From: an uncultured cyanobacterium
GTDB taxonomy: Bacteria; Cyanobacteriota; Cyanobacteriia; Cyanobacteriales; CAWUOF01
Reading direction: 5' to 3'
Length of the DNA stretch: 64,000 nucleotides
Assembly: GCA_963744145.1 (NCBI GenBank)
Contig: CAVUSO010000001.1
Coordinates: 3,264,001-3,328,000 of the forward strand
Both the position numbers and the translations under genes were made by a program. Below the pieces are notes generated by a model. That model was given only the letters and a program-made list of their open reading frames with translations. It did no database searches and had not been told where the DNA came from. Each line of letters opens with the position of its first letter. The stretch's first letter is position 1. Positions 11,750 to 46,220 of this stretch are shown piece by piece.

Positions 11750-14700
11750 ATGAACCGGAGAGCTTTAGTAGTCGGGATTAACCGATACCCTTTTATCAAA
11801 AATTTGGAAAGACCAGCTTCTGATGCAGAGGCGATCGCTCATCTCCTAGAAAATCATGGTGGCTTTCAAGTGCGTCGGTTGCCTGCTGGGATAGGAGATG
11901 ATAGATTTAACGTCAATCCTAAACCTGGTAATGGAGAAGAAAATGTTAACATCACGATATTAGAAGAAGAAATTATCAAATTGTTCGCGATCGGAGAAAC
12001 AGATTGCCCTGATCTAGCCTTGCTGTTTTTTGCTGGACACGGTTTGCGAAAACCACGAGGATTAAAAGAAGGATTTTTAGCTACTAGCGAGGCTTGTCCT
12101 AGAAAAGAAGTATATGGTTTTGCTTTAAATTCCTTACGAGATATTTTAGAAGCAAGTGAAGTTAAACAGCAAGTAATTTGGTTAGATTGTTGTCATAGTG
12201 GTAAATTTATTGATGTATTAGATAAAGCTGATCCAAGAAATGCAGGTAAAGTACGCGATCGCTGTTTTATTGCTGCTTGTAGTGCTTCAGAAACTGCTTA
12301 TGGAACTGGCGAACATGGGTTACTAACTAGCATTCTTTTACAAGGACTCGATCCGCAGGGGTGTGAAGTTAATGAGTGGATAAATAACCTTTCTTTAGCA
12401 GCGTTTGTTAACGATAATGAAGACTGGCGAAACTTTGATCAGCGTCCAGTCTTTAACAATTCGGGCGGGGAAATTCAACTCATTAAAGGAGGAAAAAGTC
12501 AGCAAAATCTAGTTGAAAATTCTTTGGTAAATCAACCCGGATGCTCGAATATTAATATAGGAACAAGGAAAATCCTTCACGTCAGTTTAAGTGAACAGGA
12601 CGAAGATTATGCTTCTGTGCGCTACTTTTGGGAGAATTCGGCTGATGGCAAAGAACATAAATTGTCTCTGGCTGAAATTAAAGATTTAGGTAATCAAGCA
12701 GAAGCTGATTTAACTCGTAGCCCTGTGGATTATGCTACTACTGGACAATTACTCTACAATTGGTTAGATCAGAGCGATCGCTTCCTAACTAATGCCTTAA
12801 ATCAGTCCGATCGGAAAGAGTTAATCATTGCGATCGCGACTGATCAAAAACTAGCAAAATTGCCTTGGGAATTGTTGCATGATGGGAATTGTTTCTTAGT
12901 AGAGAAAAGACCTGCTATTATTCCGGTGCGGTGGGTGTCTAATGGTCAACCGATCGCGATCGCTAATTCTCCGCAAAATCGACCTCTTAATTTATTATTT
13001 ATGGCGACTTCTCCTTTGGGAGTTGAACCCGAATTAGATTATGAAGCAGAAGAAGGGCAAATTTTAGAGGCAACCCAGCGTGCTTCAGTGGACTTAATAG
13101 TAGAAGAAAGTGGCTGTTTAGATGAATTGAGTTATGTGGTTCGGGAATATGAAAAAGGCTATTTTGATATTTTTCATTTAACAGGTCATACGACTACTGA
13201 GGAGAAAAAACCTTGCTTTTTGACTGAAGATGAATACGGCAACCGAGTTAATAGTAGTACCGCTGACATTTATGATGCACTGACATCCTCATTACCGCCT
13301 TTAATTTTCCTATCTGGTTGTCGAACTGGTTATTCTTCTAAAGACACAGTTCCCTCAATGGCAGAAGAATTATTAAGGATAGGAGGAACAGCAGTTTTAG
13401 GATGGGGAGAAAGAGTCCGGGATACCGATGCAACAGCGGCTGCTAGTATATTTTATCGTCTTTTGTCTCAGGGAGAAGCGATTACAGATGCACTATCTTC
13501 TACCTATCAAACACTGATTAAACAACAGTCACGCGATTGGCATCAATTACGGTTATATGTGTCAAATATCATCCCCCAGGCGTTAGTAACTCCTTTAAGA
13601 ACAAAGGGACGAAAACAATTGCCCAAACCGACGACAACAAGCCAATTTAGGGATGATGAGCAGAAGTTAAGAGTAGCGAGTAGAAAAGATTTTGTTGGTC
13701 GTCGTCGTCAGTTACAAAACTGTTTGCGAACTCTGAAGGGAGATCAGGAAAAAGTAGGTGTATTAATTCACGGGATGGGGGGATTAGGAAAAAGTAGCAT
13801 TGCCTCTCGATTGTGGGATAGACTATCTGAACATGAAAAAGTTCTATGGTGGCGACAAATTGATAACTCAAACTTAATCAAAAAGCTATCGTCTAAATTA
13901 ATTAAACCAGAGTTACGGGATATTCGTAATGATTTAAACGCTAGCGATGACAGTTTAGACATTAAACTCGCTAATTTGTTCAATCAATTAGTAGGACAGA
14001 GAGAAAAACCATTTCTCCTGATTCTTGATGATTTTGAATGGAATCTCGAAGACAATCAAGGTCGATTCATTCTCAATCCTGAAGTGAAAACAGTTTTGTC
14101 AGCCTTAGTCTGGGCTATCCAAGAAACGGGAACTAAACATCGGATTTTAATTACCTGTCGCTATGAGTTTGATTCTGAGTTATTGGAGTTTTTCTTCTCA
14201 CAAGGTCTAGAATCTTTTAGAAAATCTGAATTAACTAAAAAGCTTACCCGCTTAGAACATTTTAGTTCGGAGCGGCTCTCTGAAGATATACGCGATCGGG
14301 CGCTAAGTTTAGCCGATGGCAATCCTCGTTTACTGGAATATCTCAATGATGAAGTTTTAGGTGAACCAGATGCAGCAGCTAAATTAACAGAACTAGAACA
14401 AAGTCCCGAACTGTGGAAAAACAAAATTATTTGGTCAGACCTGTATAAGCTTATTGATGAGCCATTACAACGGGTTCTTAGCCATTGCTTAATTTATGAA
14501 ATTCCTGTACCAATGGGAGCTTTAGAAGTAGTTTGTGCTGCTCTTCCTAATTACCAACAGCAATTACATCGAGGGCAAGAGCTGGGACTCATTGAAATCA
14601 GTCCTGACGTTCAAGCAGAAAATCAAGTCTTTCGTGTCTCTCGAATTTTACCTCATATCATTCCTAATATCCGACTTCCTGAAGCACCTGAAGTTTATTC

Positions 14701-15397
14701 TTTATACAAGAAAGCTTATGAAATATTACATCAGTTATGGGGAAATCAACAAAATAGAAGTCAGGAAAAGTGGCAGGAGATTTTTCGGTTATTGTTTGCC
14801 GATCGAGAAAATCCAGAACGATTCAGACAGGGATTCTATGAGATGTTGGCAGTTCAAGGTAATTATCAAGCAGATGAAAACGCAAATATTGCCTTAGAGT
14901 CAGAACTGATACAACGGAAAGATGAATTATCAACAGAGAATCTTTGCAGTCAATTAGAGAATTATTTAAGTCAACAAGAATGGAGAAAAGCTGACGAGGA
15001 AACTGCCTGGATTTTTTATCAAATGATGGTGCAGCATGACGATGAAGGTAGGATGGTGGTATGCAAGAACATTCCCAGCGAAACCCTCAACCAGATCGAT
15101 CAGCTTTGGGTTAATAACAGTCAAGGACGTTTTGGATTCAGCATTCAAAAGCGAATCTGGGAAAGTGTGGGCGGACATCCACATGCAGATTTTGAAAAAA
15201 TATTTGAAAAATTTGGTGATAAAGTAGGATGGAGAAAAGATGGCTTCTGGTTGTCAGAGCTTACTTTTAATAATAACACCACTACTCCTTTTAGCCACCT
15301 CCCGGCCACCTCCCTTTTCCTGGTGTATGCGTGGGATGGGGTATTACTAGGAATGTGGTGGTTTTTGAGTTATCTTTTCTCGCGCAAAGACTTGTAA
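11750..15397 (+). CDS. Caspase (C14) + CHAT + P-loop NTPase + GUN4-domain protein
   Basis: FAGHG/LDCCHSG caspase dyad; FHLTGH/LSGCRTG CHAT dyad; Walker A GMGGLGKS and Walker B LILDDFE; GUN4 motifs WRKADEET, IDQLWVNNSQGRFGFSIQKRIW, VGWR, HLP. Confidence 0.88.
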   Translation: MNRRALVVGINRYPFIKNLERPASDAEAIAHLLENHGGFQVRRLPAGIGDDRFNVNPKPGNGEENVNITILEEEIIKLFAIGETDCPDLALLFFAGHGLRKPRGLKEGFLATSEACPRKEVYGFALNSLRDILEASEVKQQVIWLDCCHSGKFIDVLDKADPRNAGKVRDRCFIAACSASETAYGTGEHGLLTSILLQGLDPQGCEVNEWINNLSLAAFVNDNEDWRNFDQRPVFNNSGGEIQLIKGGKSQQNLVENSLVNQPGCSNINIGTRKILHVSLSEQDEDYASVRYFWENSADGKEHKLSLAEIKDLGNQAEADLTRSPVDYATTGQLLYNWLDQSDRFLTNALNQSDRKELIIAIATDQKLAKLPWELLHDGNCFLVEKRPAIIPVRWVSNGQPIAIANSPQNRPLNLLFMATSPLGVEPELDYEAEEGQILEATQRASVDLIVEESGCLDELSYVVREYEKGYFDIFHLTGHTTTEEKKPCFLTEDEYGNRVNSSTADIYDALTSSLPPLIFLSGCRTGYSSKDTVPSMAEELLRIGGTAVLGWGERVRDTDATAAASIFYRLLSQGEAITDALSSTYQTLIKQQSRDWHQLRLYVSNIIPQALVTPLRTKGRKQLPKPTTTSQFRDDEQKLRVASRKDFVGRRRQLQNCLRTLKGDQEKVGVLIHGMGGLGKSSIASRLWDRLSEHEKVLWWRQIDNSNLIKKLSSKLIKPELRDIRNDLNASDDSLDIKLANLFNQLVGQREKPFLLILDDFEWNLEDNQGRFILNPEVKTVLSALVWAIQETGTKHRILITCRYEFDSELLEFFFSQGLESFRKSELTKKLTRLEHFSSERLSEDIRDRALSLADGNPRLLEYLNDEVLGEPDAAAKLTELEQSPELWKNKIIWSDLYKLIDEPLQRVLSHCLIYEIPVPMGALEVVCAALPNYQQQLHRGQELGLIEISPDVQAENQVFRVSRILPHIIPNIRLPEAPEVYSLYKKAYEILHQLWGNQQNRSQEKWQEIFRLLFADRENPERFRQGFYEMLAVQGNYQADENANIALESELIQRKDELSTENLCSQLENYLSQQEWRKADEETAWIFYQMMVQHDDEGRMVVCKNIPSETLNQIDQLWVNNSQGRFGFSIQKRIWESVGGHPHADFEKIFEKFGDKVGWRKDGFWLSELTFNNNTTTPFSHLPATSLFLVYAWDGVLLGMWWFLSYLFSRKDL

Positions 15398-15450
15398 ACT
15401 TTAAGAGATAACAATTTCAGGCCATTTGTCAAGCTTATTTTTGCTACTAA
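15375..15450 (+). repeat. Conserved 3' element of GUN4-domain genes, copy 1 (stops in three frames, antisense promoter-like)
   Basis: About 80% identical to 46144-46220 by manual alignment, including ~50 bp of non-coding DNA. Confidence 0.85.
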
Positions 15451-15852
15451 TTTTTACGAAAACATCGGCTTTTTCCTAACTCAATACCTGGCACTGTTCC
15501 GTCCGTCCGTCGTTTGTCTGTTTTTGGAATATGGACAGAAGAAAGACAGAATGGCCAGGTGACCAGAACAACACAAACTAAGAATCATTAAAAAACTGTG
15601 CAGCGACCTTGGGGTCATAGCAATTAGCCATCACAAACTTTTCAGCCAGATGATGTAGTCGATCGCATTTGGTGGGATAGCTGAGGTGCGATCGCGTAAG
15701 TCAACATTCACTGACTGAAAATTGCGCCAATTTTTCAGAGCTATATGGGAGATCATCCTGGTGTTAACCGAATAATTTTTTAAAGATTCAAACCCGCGAT
15801 CGCCCACAAGTGTCAGTCAAGAAAAAATTGACAAAAAGAACGAAGTATCTCA

Positions 15853-16190
15853 GTAGGGGCTTTCGCATTCGGGCGACAATTGAACAATCAAACTGTACCC
15901 TGAGTTTACCCTGAGCGTAGCCGAAGGGCGTAGTCGAAGGGCAGTAATATTATACCCGAATGCTTCGCCCAGTCTGCGCCGATATCTCCCAAAAAATTCT
16001 GAACTGAATGTATTTTAATATATATTTGATCTGTTGGCTGCATAGATGGTAAGGGCAAAGCATTTCGGTAATATTATACTTCCCTTCGACTACGCCCTTC
16101 GACTCCGCTCAGGGTAAACTCAGGGTAAACGTTTAAGCAATCATTTATTCGCCGAAATGCTTTGCCCCTACAATTAACTGAACCGGATTG
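15853..16190. repeat. Two adjacent GTAG-type REP doublets (REPIN/MITE), each carrying a nested 48-bp insert
   Basis: GTAGGGGC...GCATTCGG...CCGAATGCTTCGCCC and GTAAGGGCAAAGCATTTCGG...CCGAAATGCTTTGCCCCTAC inverted arms. Confidence 0.85.
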
Positions 16191-16296
16191 AATTATAGTT
16201 ACCATCGAATCATATTCAAACTCTCAATCCCGCGATCGCCTGTACTTTAAACATCAGCTCATCAACTTGCTACTGGACGCTTCCCCGCTCATACAG

Positions 16297-17753
16297 CAGG
16301 GTAAGAGCATCTCAATTAGGCTTGACACAAGGATTAAGAAGGATCTAATGTAGACTCAGAGAAACAAGAAAGGAGGATTTGGAGCATATAATTATTATCC
16401 ATAGCAGCGCGTTTACTTTTCTGGCGTAAACTGCGTTTGTAAGTTGACTCGCGATTAAGAGCGTTGAGAGCTAATCGTCTGAGCAGAGAAAAGTTACGAG
16501 GACTGTGAAAAGAACGAATGCGACAGCTATCTTCAAAAAAAGTACAATCTAAAGTCCAGTGTGCAGAATTTTCGATTTCCCAATGTTGACGAATAGCTCG
16601 ACCTATGAATTCAGCATTGTTGTCTAAAGAAGTAAGATAGTATTGAGTCTCGCAAGTAGTTTTGTTCCAAAGATGACGGATACGATGAATGATGACAATA
16701 CTTTTTAAACCTGCCCATAATTTGGGTTGGTAAAGGTCAGGAATGGCCGTAATAGGGAGCACCCAAACTTCACGAATTTCCACCCGATGATGCCCTTTCT
16801 CAATCCGTTTGTCATGAGTGAAATCAATTCCTGAAAAATTATTTTTCTGTGCAGTTTGGAAGAATTGTTGTACCTGATTATGTAAAGTTGGATGATTGGC
16901 TTTAAGTGTCAGAATATAATCAGCTTTTTTATCAATAATCTTTTGAGCAATTTCGGTTTGGGTCCCCATCGCATCAATAGTAATAATTGAGCCAGCGATA
17001 TCAAGTAACTCTAGTAATGCTGGAATAGCTGTAATTTCATTGGATTTATCTTGGACTTTCATTTGTGCTAAAACTAATCGTTGTTCACTAGCCCACGCAC
17101 TAATCAAATGTAATGCTGATTGTCCTTGATTTCGGTCATAGGAACCTCTGACAGTCTTCCCATCTATGGCAATTACTTCTCCTCCCATTTGAGTAACTAA
17201 GGTGTTTACCCAAGCTTGAAAACATTGCTCCAATTGGTTGGGGTTAATACTTTCAAATACTCGACGAAAGGTATCATCTGAGGGAATACCATTGGGTAAT
17301 TCTAAAAACTCTTCTAGCCAAATTTGTTTACTAATCCCATAATTCTCAATGTCTTCCCAGCCTTGTGCTCCAGCTATTATGACCAGAATTGCCATCACTA
17401 AAATGTCTATCAATAAGTGTTTTTTTGTTCGGTTTACTCTCGGGTCTTCAACATCTTCAAAATGCTTGACTAAACTCTGTTGTATTTCCATCAAGTCAGC
17501 TACTACTTGGTTTTTCCTAGCAGAATGGGAGTTTTGTTTAGCATTAGCTATATTGATATCGAACCCTTGAGACATTTGAATATTCCTGGAGATTATGAGT
17601 TGGACGGTATAGTTTTTCACCTACCACTCTCTATGCTCTTTTGTCAACTATTTTCTCTACCAGATTTGTGATGTTCTGATCTCGATGGCTATATTTCATA
17701 TTTGATGAAAATATTCTGTATCCTCGGTGACAAAATTAGATGCGCTAACCCTG
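16297..17753 (-). mobile_element. ISAs1 family insertion sequence with 10-bp TSD
   Basis: TIRs CAGGGTAAGAGCATCTCAATT / AATTAGATGCGCTAACCCTG; GCTCATACAG duplicated at 16287-16296 and 17754-17763. Confidence 0.95.
16334..17575 (-). CDS. ISAs1 family DDE transposase
   Basis: DPRV..TKKH, GIPSDDTFRRVF, IAIDGK, KSNEITAIP, DAMGTQ, HWEIENSAHWTLD; intact ORF. Confidence 0.96.
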   Translation of the reverse strand: MSQGFDINIANAKQNSHSARKNQVVADLMEIQQSLVKHFEDVEDPRVNRTKKHLLIDILVMAILVIIAGAQGWEDIENYGISKQIWLEEFLELPNGIPSDDTFRRVFESINPNQLEQCFQAWVNTLVTQMGGEVIAIDGKTVRGSYDRNQGQSALHLISAWASEQRLVLAQMKVQDKSNEITAIPALLELLDIAGSIITIDAMGTQTEIAQKIIDKKADYILTLKANHPTLHNQVQQFFQTAQKNNFSGIDFTHDKRIEKGHHRVEIREVWVLPITAIPDLYQPKLWAGLKSIVIIHRIRHLWNKTTCETQYYLTSLDNNAEFIGRAIRQHWEIENSAHWTLDCTFFEDSCRIRSFHSPRNFSLLRRLALNALNRESTYKRSLRQKSKRAAMDNNYMLQILLSCFSESTLDPS

Positions 17754-20928: not shown

Positions 20929-21924
20929 ATGACCAAACCCAATACTGATGATTGGAAAACACCTCTAGGGGTATATGAAAAAGCGATCGCTGAATTACGG
21001 AGAACTCGGGAACAAATTCAGACAGAAATCCAAACTTTCAGACAGATGCCAATTCCTATAAATGAATTTTCAGAATTGAAAGCAGAACTAAAAAAATCTC
21101 ACCTAAAAATCGAAGCTCTTACCGCAGATTTGGAACAAACTAAAACCGAACTTGTCAATACTCAAAAAATCGCCAGTGCTGCTCAAGAGCAAGTTGCTAA
21201 TGCGGAAAAACAAGCTGATTATGCTCAGAAAGAATTAGAAAAATTAACTAAAGTTATGAATAATAATCAAAGCAGTAATACTGAGCTTATTGAAATGGTT
21301 AAAAAACTACAAGAGCAATTAGAACAACTGTCATCTATACCGAAAACAGAGAATTTGCCAGATCGGATTATGGTAGATATTTCAGACTTGCGATCGCAAG
21401 TATCGAAATTATCAGATGAACTAATGCTTGTTTCTCCTGTAACCGGAACAGACTACTCTAGTTTGCGAGATTTATTAGCAAACAAAGAATGGAAAAAAGC
21501 TGATGAAGAAACTAGAGAAATAATGCTGAAAATTTCTAAGAGAGACGAGAATGGATGGTTAGATCGAGGGAACATCGAACAATTTCCCTGGCAAGATTTT
21601 CGGATAATTAATAGACTTTGGTTAGAATACAGCAATAGCAAATTTGGGTTTAGTGTTCAAAAGCAAATATGGGAAAACATAGAGGTAGCTAGCAACAATG
21701 ATTTTGAAGTAGAGAAGACTTTAGGCGATCGGGTTGGGTGGCGTAATAATAATGTATGGCTTAAGTATGAAGAACTTACTTTTGATCTTAGTGCATTTGA
21801 GGGACATCTACCATCAACCCTTCATCTTCTTGGTATAGAACACGGAAAAGTAGAAGGTAGAATAAGATTGCTTTTCTCAACTGATAAATCGGGAGCAGTT
21901 CGGCGTCGAAAAAAGAAGCAATAA
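20929..21924 (+). CDS. Coiled-coil + GUN4-domain protein
   Basis: DYSSLRDLLANKEWKKADEET, LWLEYSNSKFGFSVQKQIW, VGWR, GHLP. Confidence 0.9.
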   Translation: MTKPNTDDWKTPLGVYEKAIAELRRTREQIQTEIQTFRQMPIPINEFSELKAELKKSHLKIEALTADLEQTKTELVNTQKIASAAQEQVANAEKQADYAQKELEKLTKVMNNNQSSNTELIEMVKKLQEQLEQLSSIPKTENLPDRIMVDISDLRSQVSKLSDELMLVSPVTGTDYSSLRDLLANKEWKKADEETREIMLKISKRDENGWLDRGNIEQFPWQDFRIINRLWLEYSNSKFGFSVQKQIWENIEVASNNDFEVEKTLGDRVGWRNNNVWLKYEELTFDLSAFEGHLPSTLHLLGIEHGKVEGRIRLLFSTDKSGAVRRRKKKQ

Positions 21925-45540: not shown

Positions 45541-46173
45541 ATGAATCTATGTCTAAACCCTGATGGTCAGAATATTAATCCGTCTAGCACCAAGTTTTGT
45601 CAGCCATGTGAGAATGAGTGGTTACTAGGCGATCGCGATCAGTCTACTTGTGAAGTATTGTCAGCACTTAATCCTCAATCAATACCTACACAAATTCAAA
45701 TTACTCTGACAAGTGAAAAAGGAATCGATTACAGTCATCTCCAGGAACTATTAGCTGCTAGAAAATGGCAAGAAGCGGATCAGGAAACTTATCGACTTGT
45801 GCTCAAAGTTGCTAATCGTGAAAAAGAAGAATATCTCACAGTTGATAATTGGTTAAACTTTCCCTGTAAAGACCTTCACACTATAGATCAGTTATGGGTG
45901 CAATACTCTTATGGTCGTTTTGGGTTTAGTGTCCAAAAAGAAATCTGGGAGAGTAAAGATGTGGGAGGTCATCCCGAGGCAAATTATGAGATAAGATATA
46001 AATTTGCTAATACTGTAGGATGGAGAAAAGAAGGAAACTGGTTAGCTTATAGCGACTTAACCTTTAATATCAATGCACCAATAGGTCATCTTCCAGTTTG
46101 TGATATTTGGTTAGGGGGATGTTATATATCCGTGTTGGGGTTATTTTCTAGTGCAAAGACTTGTAACCTATAA
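45541..46173 (+). CDS. GUN4-domain protein with a vestigial kinase N-terminus
   Basis: Degenerate 4-Cys prefix (CLNP...FCQPC), then DYSHLQELLAARKWQEADQET, IDQLWVQYSYGRFGFSVQK, VGWR, GHLP. Confidence 0.88.
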   Translation: MNLCLNPDGQNINPSSTKFCQPCENEWLLGDRDQSTCEVLSALNPQSIPTQIQITLTSEKGIDYSHLQELLAARKWQEADQETYRLVLKVANREKEEYLTVDNWLNFPCKDLHTIDQLWVQYSYGRFGFSVQKEIWESKDVGGHPEANYEIRYKFANTVGWRKEGNWLAYSDLTFNINAPIGHLPVCDIWLGGCYISVLGLFSSAKTCNL

Positions 46174-46220
46174 GATATTAAGAATTTTAGGCTATTTGTT
46201 AAGCATAATTTTGATACTTA
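46144..46220 (+). repeat. Conserved 3' element of GUN4-domain genes, copy 2
   Basis: Aligns with 15375-15450. Confidence 0.85.

Follow-up and report, generated by a model that had tools for sequence, protein, structure and literature searches.

The window, that is the whole 64,000-nucleotide stretch of DNA that was analysed (positions 3,264,001 to 3,328,000 of contig CAVUSO010000001.1 of an uncultured cyanobacterium), carries two genes, named here gene 1 and gene 2, whose products end in a GUN4-like domain (PF05419; 92.9 and 147.6 bits, respectively, for a gathering cut-off of 29.2). The genome, 7.7 Mb in 4 contigs, contains 54 matches to this family. At the 3' end of these GUN4-like sensor genes lies a three-part module: a GUN4 core that runs to an HLP motif, a G/T-rich tip, and a block of conserved DNA designated here the landing pad, or pad. 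A sequence-only reading of the window had described the two genes, the HLP motif, an 11-bp duplication, tips that cannot be aligned and a shared block, all of which were found in place (Table 1).

Table 1. Features of the two GUN4 loci of the window, in window positions (C1 positions in brackets); protein ends are given up to the stop codon.
Feature	Position	Strand	Description	Basis
Gene 1	11750..15397	+	caspase-CHAT-AAA_16/NB-ARC-GUN4 protein, 1215 aa, end ...LFSRKDL	open reading frame, translation, Pfam
GUN4 domain of gene 1 (PF05419)	14948..15316 (C1:3278948-3279316)	+	last base of the HLP codons at 15304	
11-bp tandem duplication at the HLP/tip border, gene 1	15294..15314	+	copies 15294-15304 and 15305-15314	
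G/T-rich hypervariable tip, gene 1	15305..15373	+	69 nt; G.32, T.38, A.14, C.16	
Frame-neutral block, gene 1 (copy 1)	15374..15411	+	CT-rich stretch and CGCG, then three degenerate TAA-bearing heptamers	
Conserved non-coding 3' extension	15412..15494	+	terminates in ...ATACCTGGCAC; common to a subset of paralogs and to loci of other genera	
Antisense promoter-like site, copy 1	15405..15432	-	TTGACA (15432-15427), 16 nt, TATCTC (15410-15405); start expected near 15392-15398	
Y1/HUH transposase-like remnant (last ~31 codons)	15581..15673 (C1:3279581-3279673)	-	convergent to gene 1; 74% identity to P0003 residues 225-255	
Gene 2	45541..46173	+	210 aa; Cys-rich N-terminus, GUN4 domain, end ...LFSSAKTCNL	
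Hypervariable tip, gene 2	46096..46142	+	47 nt; G.36, T.45, A.15, C.04	
Block copy 2	46143..46220	+	frame one off from copy 1; stops at 46164, 46171 (used) and 46179	
Antisense promoter-like site, copy 2	46175..46202	-	TTAACA-16-TAATAT; promoter scan passed	

The two blocks (15375-15450 and 46144-46220) align with 63 matches, 13 mismatches and 1 gap in 77 columns (82%), and the 240 nt ahead of the HLP codons are identical at 154 of 247 positions (62%). In gene 1 the block holds TAA at 15395, 15402 and 15409, spaced by 7 nt and one in each frame, for three possible tails, FSRKDL, FSRAKTCKL and LAQRLVNFKR. The stops in three frames that had been read from the letters are thus present in copy 1 but not in copy 2, where a 1-nt insertion moves the third TAA into the frame of the first and leaves one frame without a nearby stop. 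The 11-bp duplication of gene 1 amounts to a frame shift, as the tail without it would read ...HLPFPGVCVGWG...LAQRLVNFKR. Two paralogs of gene 1 in the genome are 84-88% identical to it in nucleotides, each with a different tip, and its own tip has little similarity to theirs (0.54, versus a shuffled mean of 0.45).

Searched with an iterated nhmmer profile of the block, the genome yields 24 copies at E<1e-5, each of them on the same strand as a GUN4 domain and 7-258 nt 3' of it; the next-best match (E 0.002) is away from any GUN4 gene. The block is therefore far beyond chance and is not a dispersed repeat of unrelated loci, the outcome that would have spoken against the sequence-only reading, whose proposal of a GUN4-specific block conserved as DNA and read in three frames holds up. 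Protein tails after HLP fall into three classes in this genome, ...SRKDL, ...SRAKTCNL and ...LAQRLVTCKI, which are three readings of one DNA. The pad proper is ~45 nt long and combines a CT-rich run, CGCG and three degenerate TAA heptamers, so composed that any frame is predicted to encode S/L/F-S-R, with which the last helix begins, and to reach a stop after 3-7 further residues. The ending R-x-x-x-C-x-[IL] is retained in divergent GUN4 paralogs that lack the DNA block, which makes an ancestral C-terminal helix the probable origin of the pad. A second type of block (type II) follows the same logic in about ten further GUN4 genes, with readings ...FLFSRL, ...LFSLL or a read-through into a linker. 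One open reading frame (ORF) of 1066 amino acids (C1:7458283-7460436, minus strand; loci L008-L017 and L045) holds four tandem GUN4 domains, each with its own tip and type-II block; the three internal blocks run through into a Pro/Ser/Thr-rich linker and the stop is used only at the last one.

The block extends well beyond this genome. A sequence-only covariance model, applied to 151 sampled genomes of 80 genera of the order, has matches in 69 genomes and 43 genera. Frames 0, 2 and 1 are used 32, 32 and 26 times among 90 distinct copies (this genome and the fetched loci), counts that are descriptive only, the copies being mutually related, and the unused stops are mostly retained (25-28 of 32). 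Frame use is 15/7/6 in 28 foreign loci, and 14/16/17 in the 47 intact GUN4 genes of an independent set that is anchored on a neighboring Y1 transposase-like gene (the best 80 of 416 Y1 relatives, described below). An assembly artefact is excluded by the recurrence of the three-frame pattern in dozens of independent genomes. Searches for an RNA element gave little: Rfam has no match at E<=1 in 15200-16400, RNAalifold predicts no pairs for the pad (29 sequences), and a terminator scan finds nothing at either block of the window. Two small palindromes are 79% paired, with no excess covariation. No obvious DNA signal marks the left end of the cassette, where homology between paralogs sets in together with the GUN4 domain as delimited at protein level.

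The tips differ from the rest of the cassette in both composition and behavior. Pooled over 3,171 nt, they contain G.38, T.36, A.15 and C.11, versus.23,.27,.34 and.16 in the GUN4 domains. The frequencies at codon positions 1, 2 and 3 are.45,.42 and.39 for G and.32,.34 and.38 for T, while at four-fold sites G reaches.38 in the tips versus.10 in the GUN4 domains; as it is equal at all three codon positions, the keto skew is a property of the DNA and not of the codons of one frame. The residues with G/T-only codons, Gly, Val, Trp, Leu, Phe and Cys, account for 65% of the tips. Individual tips measure between 15 and 279 nt, and the keto skew is seen again in 51 foreign tips, which bears out the hypervariable, length-variable and keto-skewed tip first described from the window. 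Close paralog pairs are 90-96% identical in the 240 nt before the tip and 95-98% identical in the 60 nt after it, with sharp borders on both sides; their tips differ in length, and in none of the 45 listed pairs does tip identity depart from the shuffled mean by more than 0.09. Homology between paralogs, at 87-90% identity, covers the GUN4 domain in full and runs on for 150-700 nt beyond the stop codon; the N-terminal parts are unrelated, which identifies the GUN4 cassette as the shared unit. The identity of paralog flanks may be inflated by gene conversion, a problem from which the cross-species pairs described below are free. Tandem duplications at the tip border occur elsewhere in addition to gene 1: 31 bp twice in L072, 12 bp in L061 (GHLPGHLP) and about 60 nt in L123.

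Several simpler descriptions of the tip were considered and rejected. A canonical G-quadruplex (G4) motif is found in 9 of 51 tips, versus 4.8 in shuffles, with G runs of up to 10, and a G-quadruplex was not retained as a defining feature. A telomere-like unit was dismissed because there is no dominant hexamer and enrichment is at most about 2-3-fold. A tail anchor or transmembrane segment was discarded by eye, as 10-40 residues with scattered charges make a poor fit. A scan of the genome for G/T tracts returned, outside the GUN4 genes, plain tandem repeats only and no tip-like cluster, although no dedicated search for copies of the tips was made.

The position of the tip in the fold can be assessed from a model. 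The AlphaFold2 model of gene 2 (59 sequences) has a predicted local distance difference test (pLDDT) value of 82, and of ~91 in the terminal helix encoded by the pad. It superimposes onto Synechocystis GUN4 (PDB ID 4XKB) with a Z of 24.3 and a root-mean-square deviation of 1.3 over 148 residues, model residues 49-210 covering residues 54-233 of the chain, up to its end. Gene 2 is thus predicted to adopt the cupped-hand GUN4 fold, last helices included. In Synechocystis GUN4, according to PMC1084334, Pro208 and Leu210 of the α6/α7 loop protrude into the palm, Arg214 is essential to porphyrin binding and Arg217 is the hinge before α7. The true GUN4 of the present genome reads GHLPLTNQLRGVRV, consistent with the Synechocystis numbering. 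In the tip-bearing paralogs, the conserved Arg pair at the Arg214/Arg217 site is absent after HLP and this segment is the variable tip; as the tip begins directly after the Pro of HLP, it replaces the Leu210/Arg214/Arg217 segment. Its modelled position places the tip in the α6/α7 loop, hence putatively in the ligand pocket, and justifies the term ligand-binding tip used in the sequence-only reading.

The tempo of tip change was examined between species. The genome set includes one same-family relative only, and the comparison was therefore carried across other genera, on 20 cross-species pairs with an upstream gene body at least 80% identical. In five pairs, the tips are 94-100% identical; two of these have flanks 97-100% identical and three come from one species trio with flanks 82-94% identical. 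In the 15 other pairs, the tips are within about 2 standard deviations of the shuffled mean, no intermediates are seen, and the frames differ in 12 of the 15. One ortholog group of four species contains three members that share a tip and a fourth with another tip, length and frame; the tip common to three species sits at loci with differing downstream flanks. Among 86 tips, stretches of more than 15 nt are shared by the five ortholog pairs only, 15 nt also being the ceiling in shuffled tips, and the new tips were therefore not copied from the sampled paralogs. None of 28 pairs of synteny-anchored loci adjacent to a Y1 gene share a tip. One synteny-anchored pair has flanks 95% and 94% identical, and tips of 38 and 37 nt that are at shuffle level and read in frames 0 and 2. 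Because orthologous tips are near-identical in five pairs and unrelated in the rest, tip change is rare and discrete, with the frame set at random. The targeted indel hypermutation that had been proposed for the window, taken as a continuous process, does not agree with this pattern.

Seven sequencing runs are listed for the organism, none of them an RNA run. Contigs from one (X1; 0.62 of words) cover a 16-kb stretch with four tips (L043) at a depth of about 3-8 and are identical to the genome; run X1 is thus the same strain or source sample. Runs X2, X6 and X7 give short repeat matches only over this stretch. The many contig joints seen at L043 2300-2376 fall in a dispersed hairpin repeat and not in a tip. 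This repeat, located downstream of a GUN4 gene (L043 2137-3204; C1:327137-328204), has arms like GGGCGAAGCATTCGG... and a summed contig depth of up to 347. Many contigs exchange a 50-75-nt inner segment of it for 2-37 other letters, which makes it a repeat family with a variable center.

The block also harbors a promoter-like motif on the opposite strand. In the window, copy 2 passes the promoter scan while copy 1 (TATCTC) narrowly fails the -10 rule for the last T. A start is mapped in a homolog of Trichodesmium erythraeum IMS101, whose primary transcriptome was obtained by differential RNA sequencing (Table S1 of PMC4143802). In that table, the antisense transcription start site (TSS) 4045428 (minus strand, 17,070 reads, rank about 353 of 6,080) is assigned to the GUN4-like gene Tery_2618 as Tery_2618-as; the gene's own start has 2,187 reads, and an internal sense start 305 nt upstream of the antisense one has 16,530. 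This TSS falls inside the covariance-model match 4045408-4045456 (plus strand), with TTGACG-18-TATACT upstream, and the block copy concerned is the one adjoining a Y1 gene. A second antisense start in the same listing (265757) lies in a degenerate block of Tery_0178; for the four other block matches of T. erythraeum, Table S1 lists no TSS. The antisense start proposed for the block is therefore found in a homolog, and each block copy of the window has a candidate site for it. Strong internal sense TSSs are present in two GUN4-like genes of T. erythraeum, at 4045123 and 265491 (both plus strand; L216 and L221; 16,530 and 8,621 reads), at the same conserved codons T-I-D-K-L-W-V-K-Y-S, where the DNA contains TTGACA. 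Sense and antisense TSSs thus bracket the last ~270-305 nt of the gene, meaning that in T. erythraeum the 3' part of GUN4 and the tip are convergently transcribed. Part of the DNA-level conservation of the pad is explained by the overlap between promoter boxes and stop heptamers. The most invariant part of the pad, the CT-rich stretch, is downstream of the antisense start.

Beyond the stop, conservation reaches about 85-140 nt, to a motif ending in ...ATACCTGGCAC, and is followed by a convergent ORF or its remnant. An intact representative, P0003 (255 aa, L049), matches PF01797 Y1_Tnp (2.4e-18, 66.9 bits, cut-off 23), with visible HxH and Y-I-H-x-N-P motifs. Its NCBIfam scores are 65.7 for REP_Tyr_transpos (RAYT; cut-off 80) and 27.4 for IS200 (cut-off 55); as both are below cut-off, P0003 is a Y1 relative that neither equivalog assigns. 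The view that no catalyst is visible in the window has therefore to be abandoned: the remnant downstream of gene 1 derives from a candidate catalyst whose intact copies elsewhere face the block. Such C-terminal remnants lie beside five GUN4 blocks of this genome, that of the window included. The single intact Y1 copy of the genome (C1:6188688-6189507, minus strand) is not beside a GUN4 gene, and its 3' flank (C1:6188300-6188700) carries an ...TTTCATTACCTGCCA motif like that of the conserved 3' extension. To note, this flank also has a short stretch that resembles the reverse complement of the CGCG core of the pad.

In the order sample, 11 of 15 full-length Y1 copies are convergent to a block, 53-360 nt away; of the four that remain, two are non-adjacent, another sits at the edge of a contig and for the last no block position is listed. 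At least 50 of the 69 block-bearing genomes of this sample have no full-length match to P0003. A species-level genome collection provided 416 relatives of P0003, the best 80 loci of which were examined, including Pleurocapsa, Xenococcus, Calothrix, Nostoc, Scytonema, Microcoleus and Trichodesmium. Among these 80 best loci, the block is found just beyond the end of the Y1 gene in 66, always on the opposite strand; 66 have a match to a hidden Markov model of the GUN4 cassette, and 47 an intact GUN4 ORF ending in the pad. The remaining 19 of the 66 block-bearing loci have no intact GUN4 ORF ending in the block, some being cut by contig ends. No alignment is obtained upstream of the Y1 gene in 10 intact copies, conserved DNA being restricted to the GUN4 side, and a genome usually holds 1-2 intact copies. 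With its other flank unconserved and this low copy number, the Y1 gene is unlike an ordinary insertion sequence and looks domesticated. All five conserved-tip pairs stem from loci without an intact Y1 gene matched beside them, a suggestive association in a small sample that is confounded by divergence level. In T. erythraeum, ~25 perfect copies of the 7-nt CCAAAAA (GUN4-sense strand) separate the Y1 stop from the 3' extension (L208, about 2270-2440).

A third GUN4-domain gene of the window (21445-21837, plus strand, in a 353-aa frame) ends in ...GHLPSTLHLLGIEHGKVEGRIRLLFSTDKSGAVRRRKKKQ and possesses neither a G/T-rich tip nor a block; its 'LLFS' recalls the start of the pad. Downstream of gene 1, a dispersed repeat of ~250-330 nt (15865-16197) has many genome copies at 83-93% identity, partly inverted or nested (for example C1:696417, 1770481, 3896455, 4405901 and 2922214), and is probably an element akin to miniature inverted-repeat transposable elements. 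The Cys-rich N-terminal motif of gene 2 (45541-45640), M-x-L-C-L-N-P-x-C...F-C-x-x-C-G...L-L-L-G-D-R-Y, is shared with several Ser/Thr-kinase-GUN4 genes (among them C1:277760 and 329380) and resembles a small zinc ribbon. Some genes with this motif begin 80 nt or less from the block of the preceding GUN4 gene.

The explanation tentatively preferred here is that tips change through rare local events of insertion, deletion, duplication and repair in an unstable G-rich tract, and that the pad has been selected for frame neutrality. Turnover would proceed by discrete events in a slippage-prone and convergently transcribed tract, such as out-of-frame tandem duplications, deletions and repair filler, none of which would need a template. 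Each event would set the reading frame at random, and selection may on this account have frozen the pad as DNA acceptable in all frames. The G/T alphabet would be favored by selection as well, since in every frame it encodes Gly, Val, Trp, Leu, Phe and Cys and rarely a stop. GUN4 domains would in this way have become a large sensor family, with caspase, CHAT, NTPase and kinase parts as fusion partners and with pocket loops, and possibly ligand specificities, that differ from copy to copy.

A number of observations weigh against this explanation. Bimodal tip similarity without intermediates fits whole-tip replacement better than gradual slippage, and slippage or duplication of the A-rich DNA of the domain leaves the source of 30-120 nt of new G/T-rich sequence unexplained. 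The tightly linked Y1 transposase-like gene is given no role. Frame tolerance is incomplete, since no more than 7 of the 33 tips of this genome are open in each of the three frames. Part of the DNA conservation of the pad could be due to the antisense promoter alone, and no covariation or RNA structure supports a structural reason for this conservation. Gene conversion of the flanks may lead to an overestimate of the speed of tip change within the genome, and the population-level data consist of same-strain contigs at low depth only, which show no tip variants and speak in neither direction. The bimodal turnover, the origin of the filler and the one-sided pairing with Y1 genes leave some probability to a programmed process of junctional diversification driven by the transposase.

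In such a process, the Y1 (HUH) enzyme would cut single-stranded DNA, exposed by convergent transcription through the tip, at the pad or at the flanking palindromes, and an untemplated or slipped G/T-rich filler would be rejoined between two fixed borders. In its fullest form, in which a domesticated Y1 enzyme performs germ-line receptor diversification, the pad and 3' extension would be a recombination-signal-like site with an antisense promoter, and nicks at fixed borders would bring filler of random length into the GUN4 pocket loop. The general proposal is a possible but doubtful one, and the fuller version is best held as a speculation of comparable weight. Both gain from the nature of the neighbor (a PF01797 member with visible HxH and Y-I-H-x-N-P motifs, an unconserved outer flank and 1-2 intact copies per genome) and from its position convergent to the block, in 11 of 15 copies of the order sample and in 66 of the best 80 loci. 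Sharp tip borders and bimodal turnover are what such a process would leave. In T. erythraeum, the Y1-adjoining copy is the one with strong antisense and internal sense starts (17,070 and 16,530 reads, versus 2,187 at the gene's own start); a listed antisense start is however seen in only one of five clear block copies of that species, plus one degenerate block. No tip is shared at Y1-adjacent loci, even with flanks 94-95% identical, whereas the five conserved-tip pairs have no intact Y1 gene beside them, but this contrast is small and confounded by divergence. The distribution of the enzyme is a further difficulty: at least 50 of 69 block-bearing genomes of the order have no full-length match to P0003, and in the present genome the only intact Y1 gene is not at a GUN4 gene, the GUN4 loci keeping remnants only. 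Finally, addition of filler would need another activity, since to our knowledge HUH enzymes do not add any, and the cleavage site is only hypothetical.

The association could conversely be a passive relic. An IS200-like or Y1 element would once have landed beside an ancestral GUN4 paralog, or truncated it; the tip would be a functionless, fast-drifting, low-complexity linker, and the pad would be kept only as an antisense promoter or leader, or as a cis element of Y1, with equal frame use as a by-product. The ...ATACCTGGCAC-like motif that also follows the Y1 copy without a GUN4 neighbor, the overlap of promoter boxes and stop heptamers, and the tips with stops or broken ORFs (including the 19 of 66 loci mentioned above, some of them cut by contig ends) are in line with this scenario. 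Yet the CT-rich part of the pad is the most invariant although it lies downstream of the antisense start, it gives the same S/L-S-R helix start in all frames, and the pad helix is modelled with confidence as the last GUN4 helix. The architecture has been kept in 43 genera out of 80, whose genomes have dozens of intact copies, and tips that are 94-100% identical in some lineages are not in free drift. A passive relic is therefore unlikely; the invariance of the coding part of the pad and the structural role that the model gives to the pad are the observations with which it agrees least. In a shuffling of cassettes, tips would be copied by gene conversion from paralogs or silent copies, the GUN4 end and the pad serving as homology arms, in the manner of pilE/pilS or of the tips of polymorphic toxins. 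Such shuffling would account for cassettes that stay 87-90% identical until ~150-700 nt after the stop in genes whose N-termini are unrelated, and for one tip present in three species at loci with different downstream flanks. It is very improbable given that none of the 33 tips of the genome resembles another and that, among 86 tips, stretches above 15 nt are shared by orthologs only. A process like that of a diversity-generating retroelement (DGR), or another templated mutagenesis by a reverse transcriptase (RT) using an antisense RNA, is given hardly any credence. An antisense RNA does cross the tip in T. erythraeum, tips are poor in A, and GUN4 has the same position in cyanobacterial conflict proteins as the DGR-targeted C-type-lectin (FGS) domain, according to PMC7159879. 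No template repeat was found among the 86 tips, however, tip length is not fixed, substitutions go beyond A positions and orthologous tips are stable in close species. Three RVT_1 matches are present in the genome (3.19, 5.01 and 5.09 Mb), and their closest approach to a GUN4 locus is ~41 kb. A DGR-like process is thus largely refuted.

GUN4-like domains are among the most expanded sensor modules of filamentous cyanobacteria, and the present data give a sequence-level reason to regard them as a diversified receptor family, the variable part of which is the ligand-pocket loop of true GUN4. The pad, with three frames about equally used across the phylum, would be a rare natural case of DNA selected for acceptable coding in every frame, and bears on overlapping codes, frameshift tolerance and gene birth. 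Searches by term within an open-access library (including PMC7159879, PMC10811720, PMC5756287, PMC6006769 and PMC3733652), returned no variable GUN4 tails, no three-frame 3' block and no link between GUN4 and a Y1 transposase; surveys of RAYT and HUH proteins, searched by term in the same way, returned no GUN4 link.

Comparison with known systems delineates the module further. Authentic GUN4 (Synechocystis sll0558; PDB IDs 1Y6I and 4XKB) shares the fold up to the last helix (Z of 22-24) and the HLP motif, but in the paralogs the segment after Pro208 (Leu210, Arg214, Arg217) is replaced by the tip and the domain is fused to effector or signalling domains. DGRs, defined by their variable repeat, template repeat and initiation-of-mutagenic-homing site (VR/TR/IMH), also vary the 3' end of a ligand-binding domain, there a C-type lectin, next to a conserved DNA element on the 3' side, and occur in like hosts and architectures (caspase, kinase and NTPase fusions; multicellular cyanobacteria). 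The GUN4 module differs by its fold, by the lack of a template repeat and of a linked RT, by variable length, by changes at all bases, and by rare, discrete turnover. Simple-sequence contingency loci likewise have G/T runs and short repeats in a coding region, where indels shift the downstream frame, and the frameshift switches the gene off. The GUN4 tip, in turn, is an irregular tract, and whichever frame results leads into a similar helix followed by a stop; what a shift alters is the loop and not an on/off state. Antigenic variation of Neisseria pilE depends on a G4 motif with an adjacent promoter for a non-coding RNA. The resemblance consists of a G-rich tract and an adjacent promoter reading through it, next to a variable coding region, but a canonical G4 is present in only 9 of 51 tips (4.8 when shuffled) and there are no silent donor cassettes among 86 tips. 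RAYTs and the Y1 transposases of IS200/IS605 have in common with the linked gene a Y1_Tnp domain with HUH and Tyr motifs, a low copy number and imperfect palindromes in the flank; here, the RAYT score is 65.7, below 80, conserved DNA is on one side only, and the repeat is confined to the 3' ends of GUN4 genes.

The remaining likeness, by analogy only, is to V(D)J recombination (RAG, recombination signal sequences, and junctional diversity of N and P type) and to immunoglobulin switch regions: a domesticated transposase-like gene, a conserved signal by the coding end, a filler of variable length in a receptor loop, and convergent transcription of a tract whose non-template strand is G-rich. The enzyme class (HUH Y1) and the evolutionary timescale differ, and any cleavage, joining or somatic variation in the GUN4 module would be hypothetical. 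One-sided Y1 pairing and a strong antisense promoter nonetheless provide concrete parts of a possible new diversification mechanism, and if the link with the enzyme were causal the system would be categorically new. Driven by Y1, it would diversify the pocket loops of GUN4 sensors that arm caspase, NTPase and kinase immune-like proteins, and would represent an indel-based counterpart of DGRs and a prokaryotic analogue of V(D)J junctional diversity, in which the pad makes every outcome productive.

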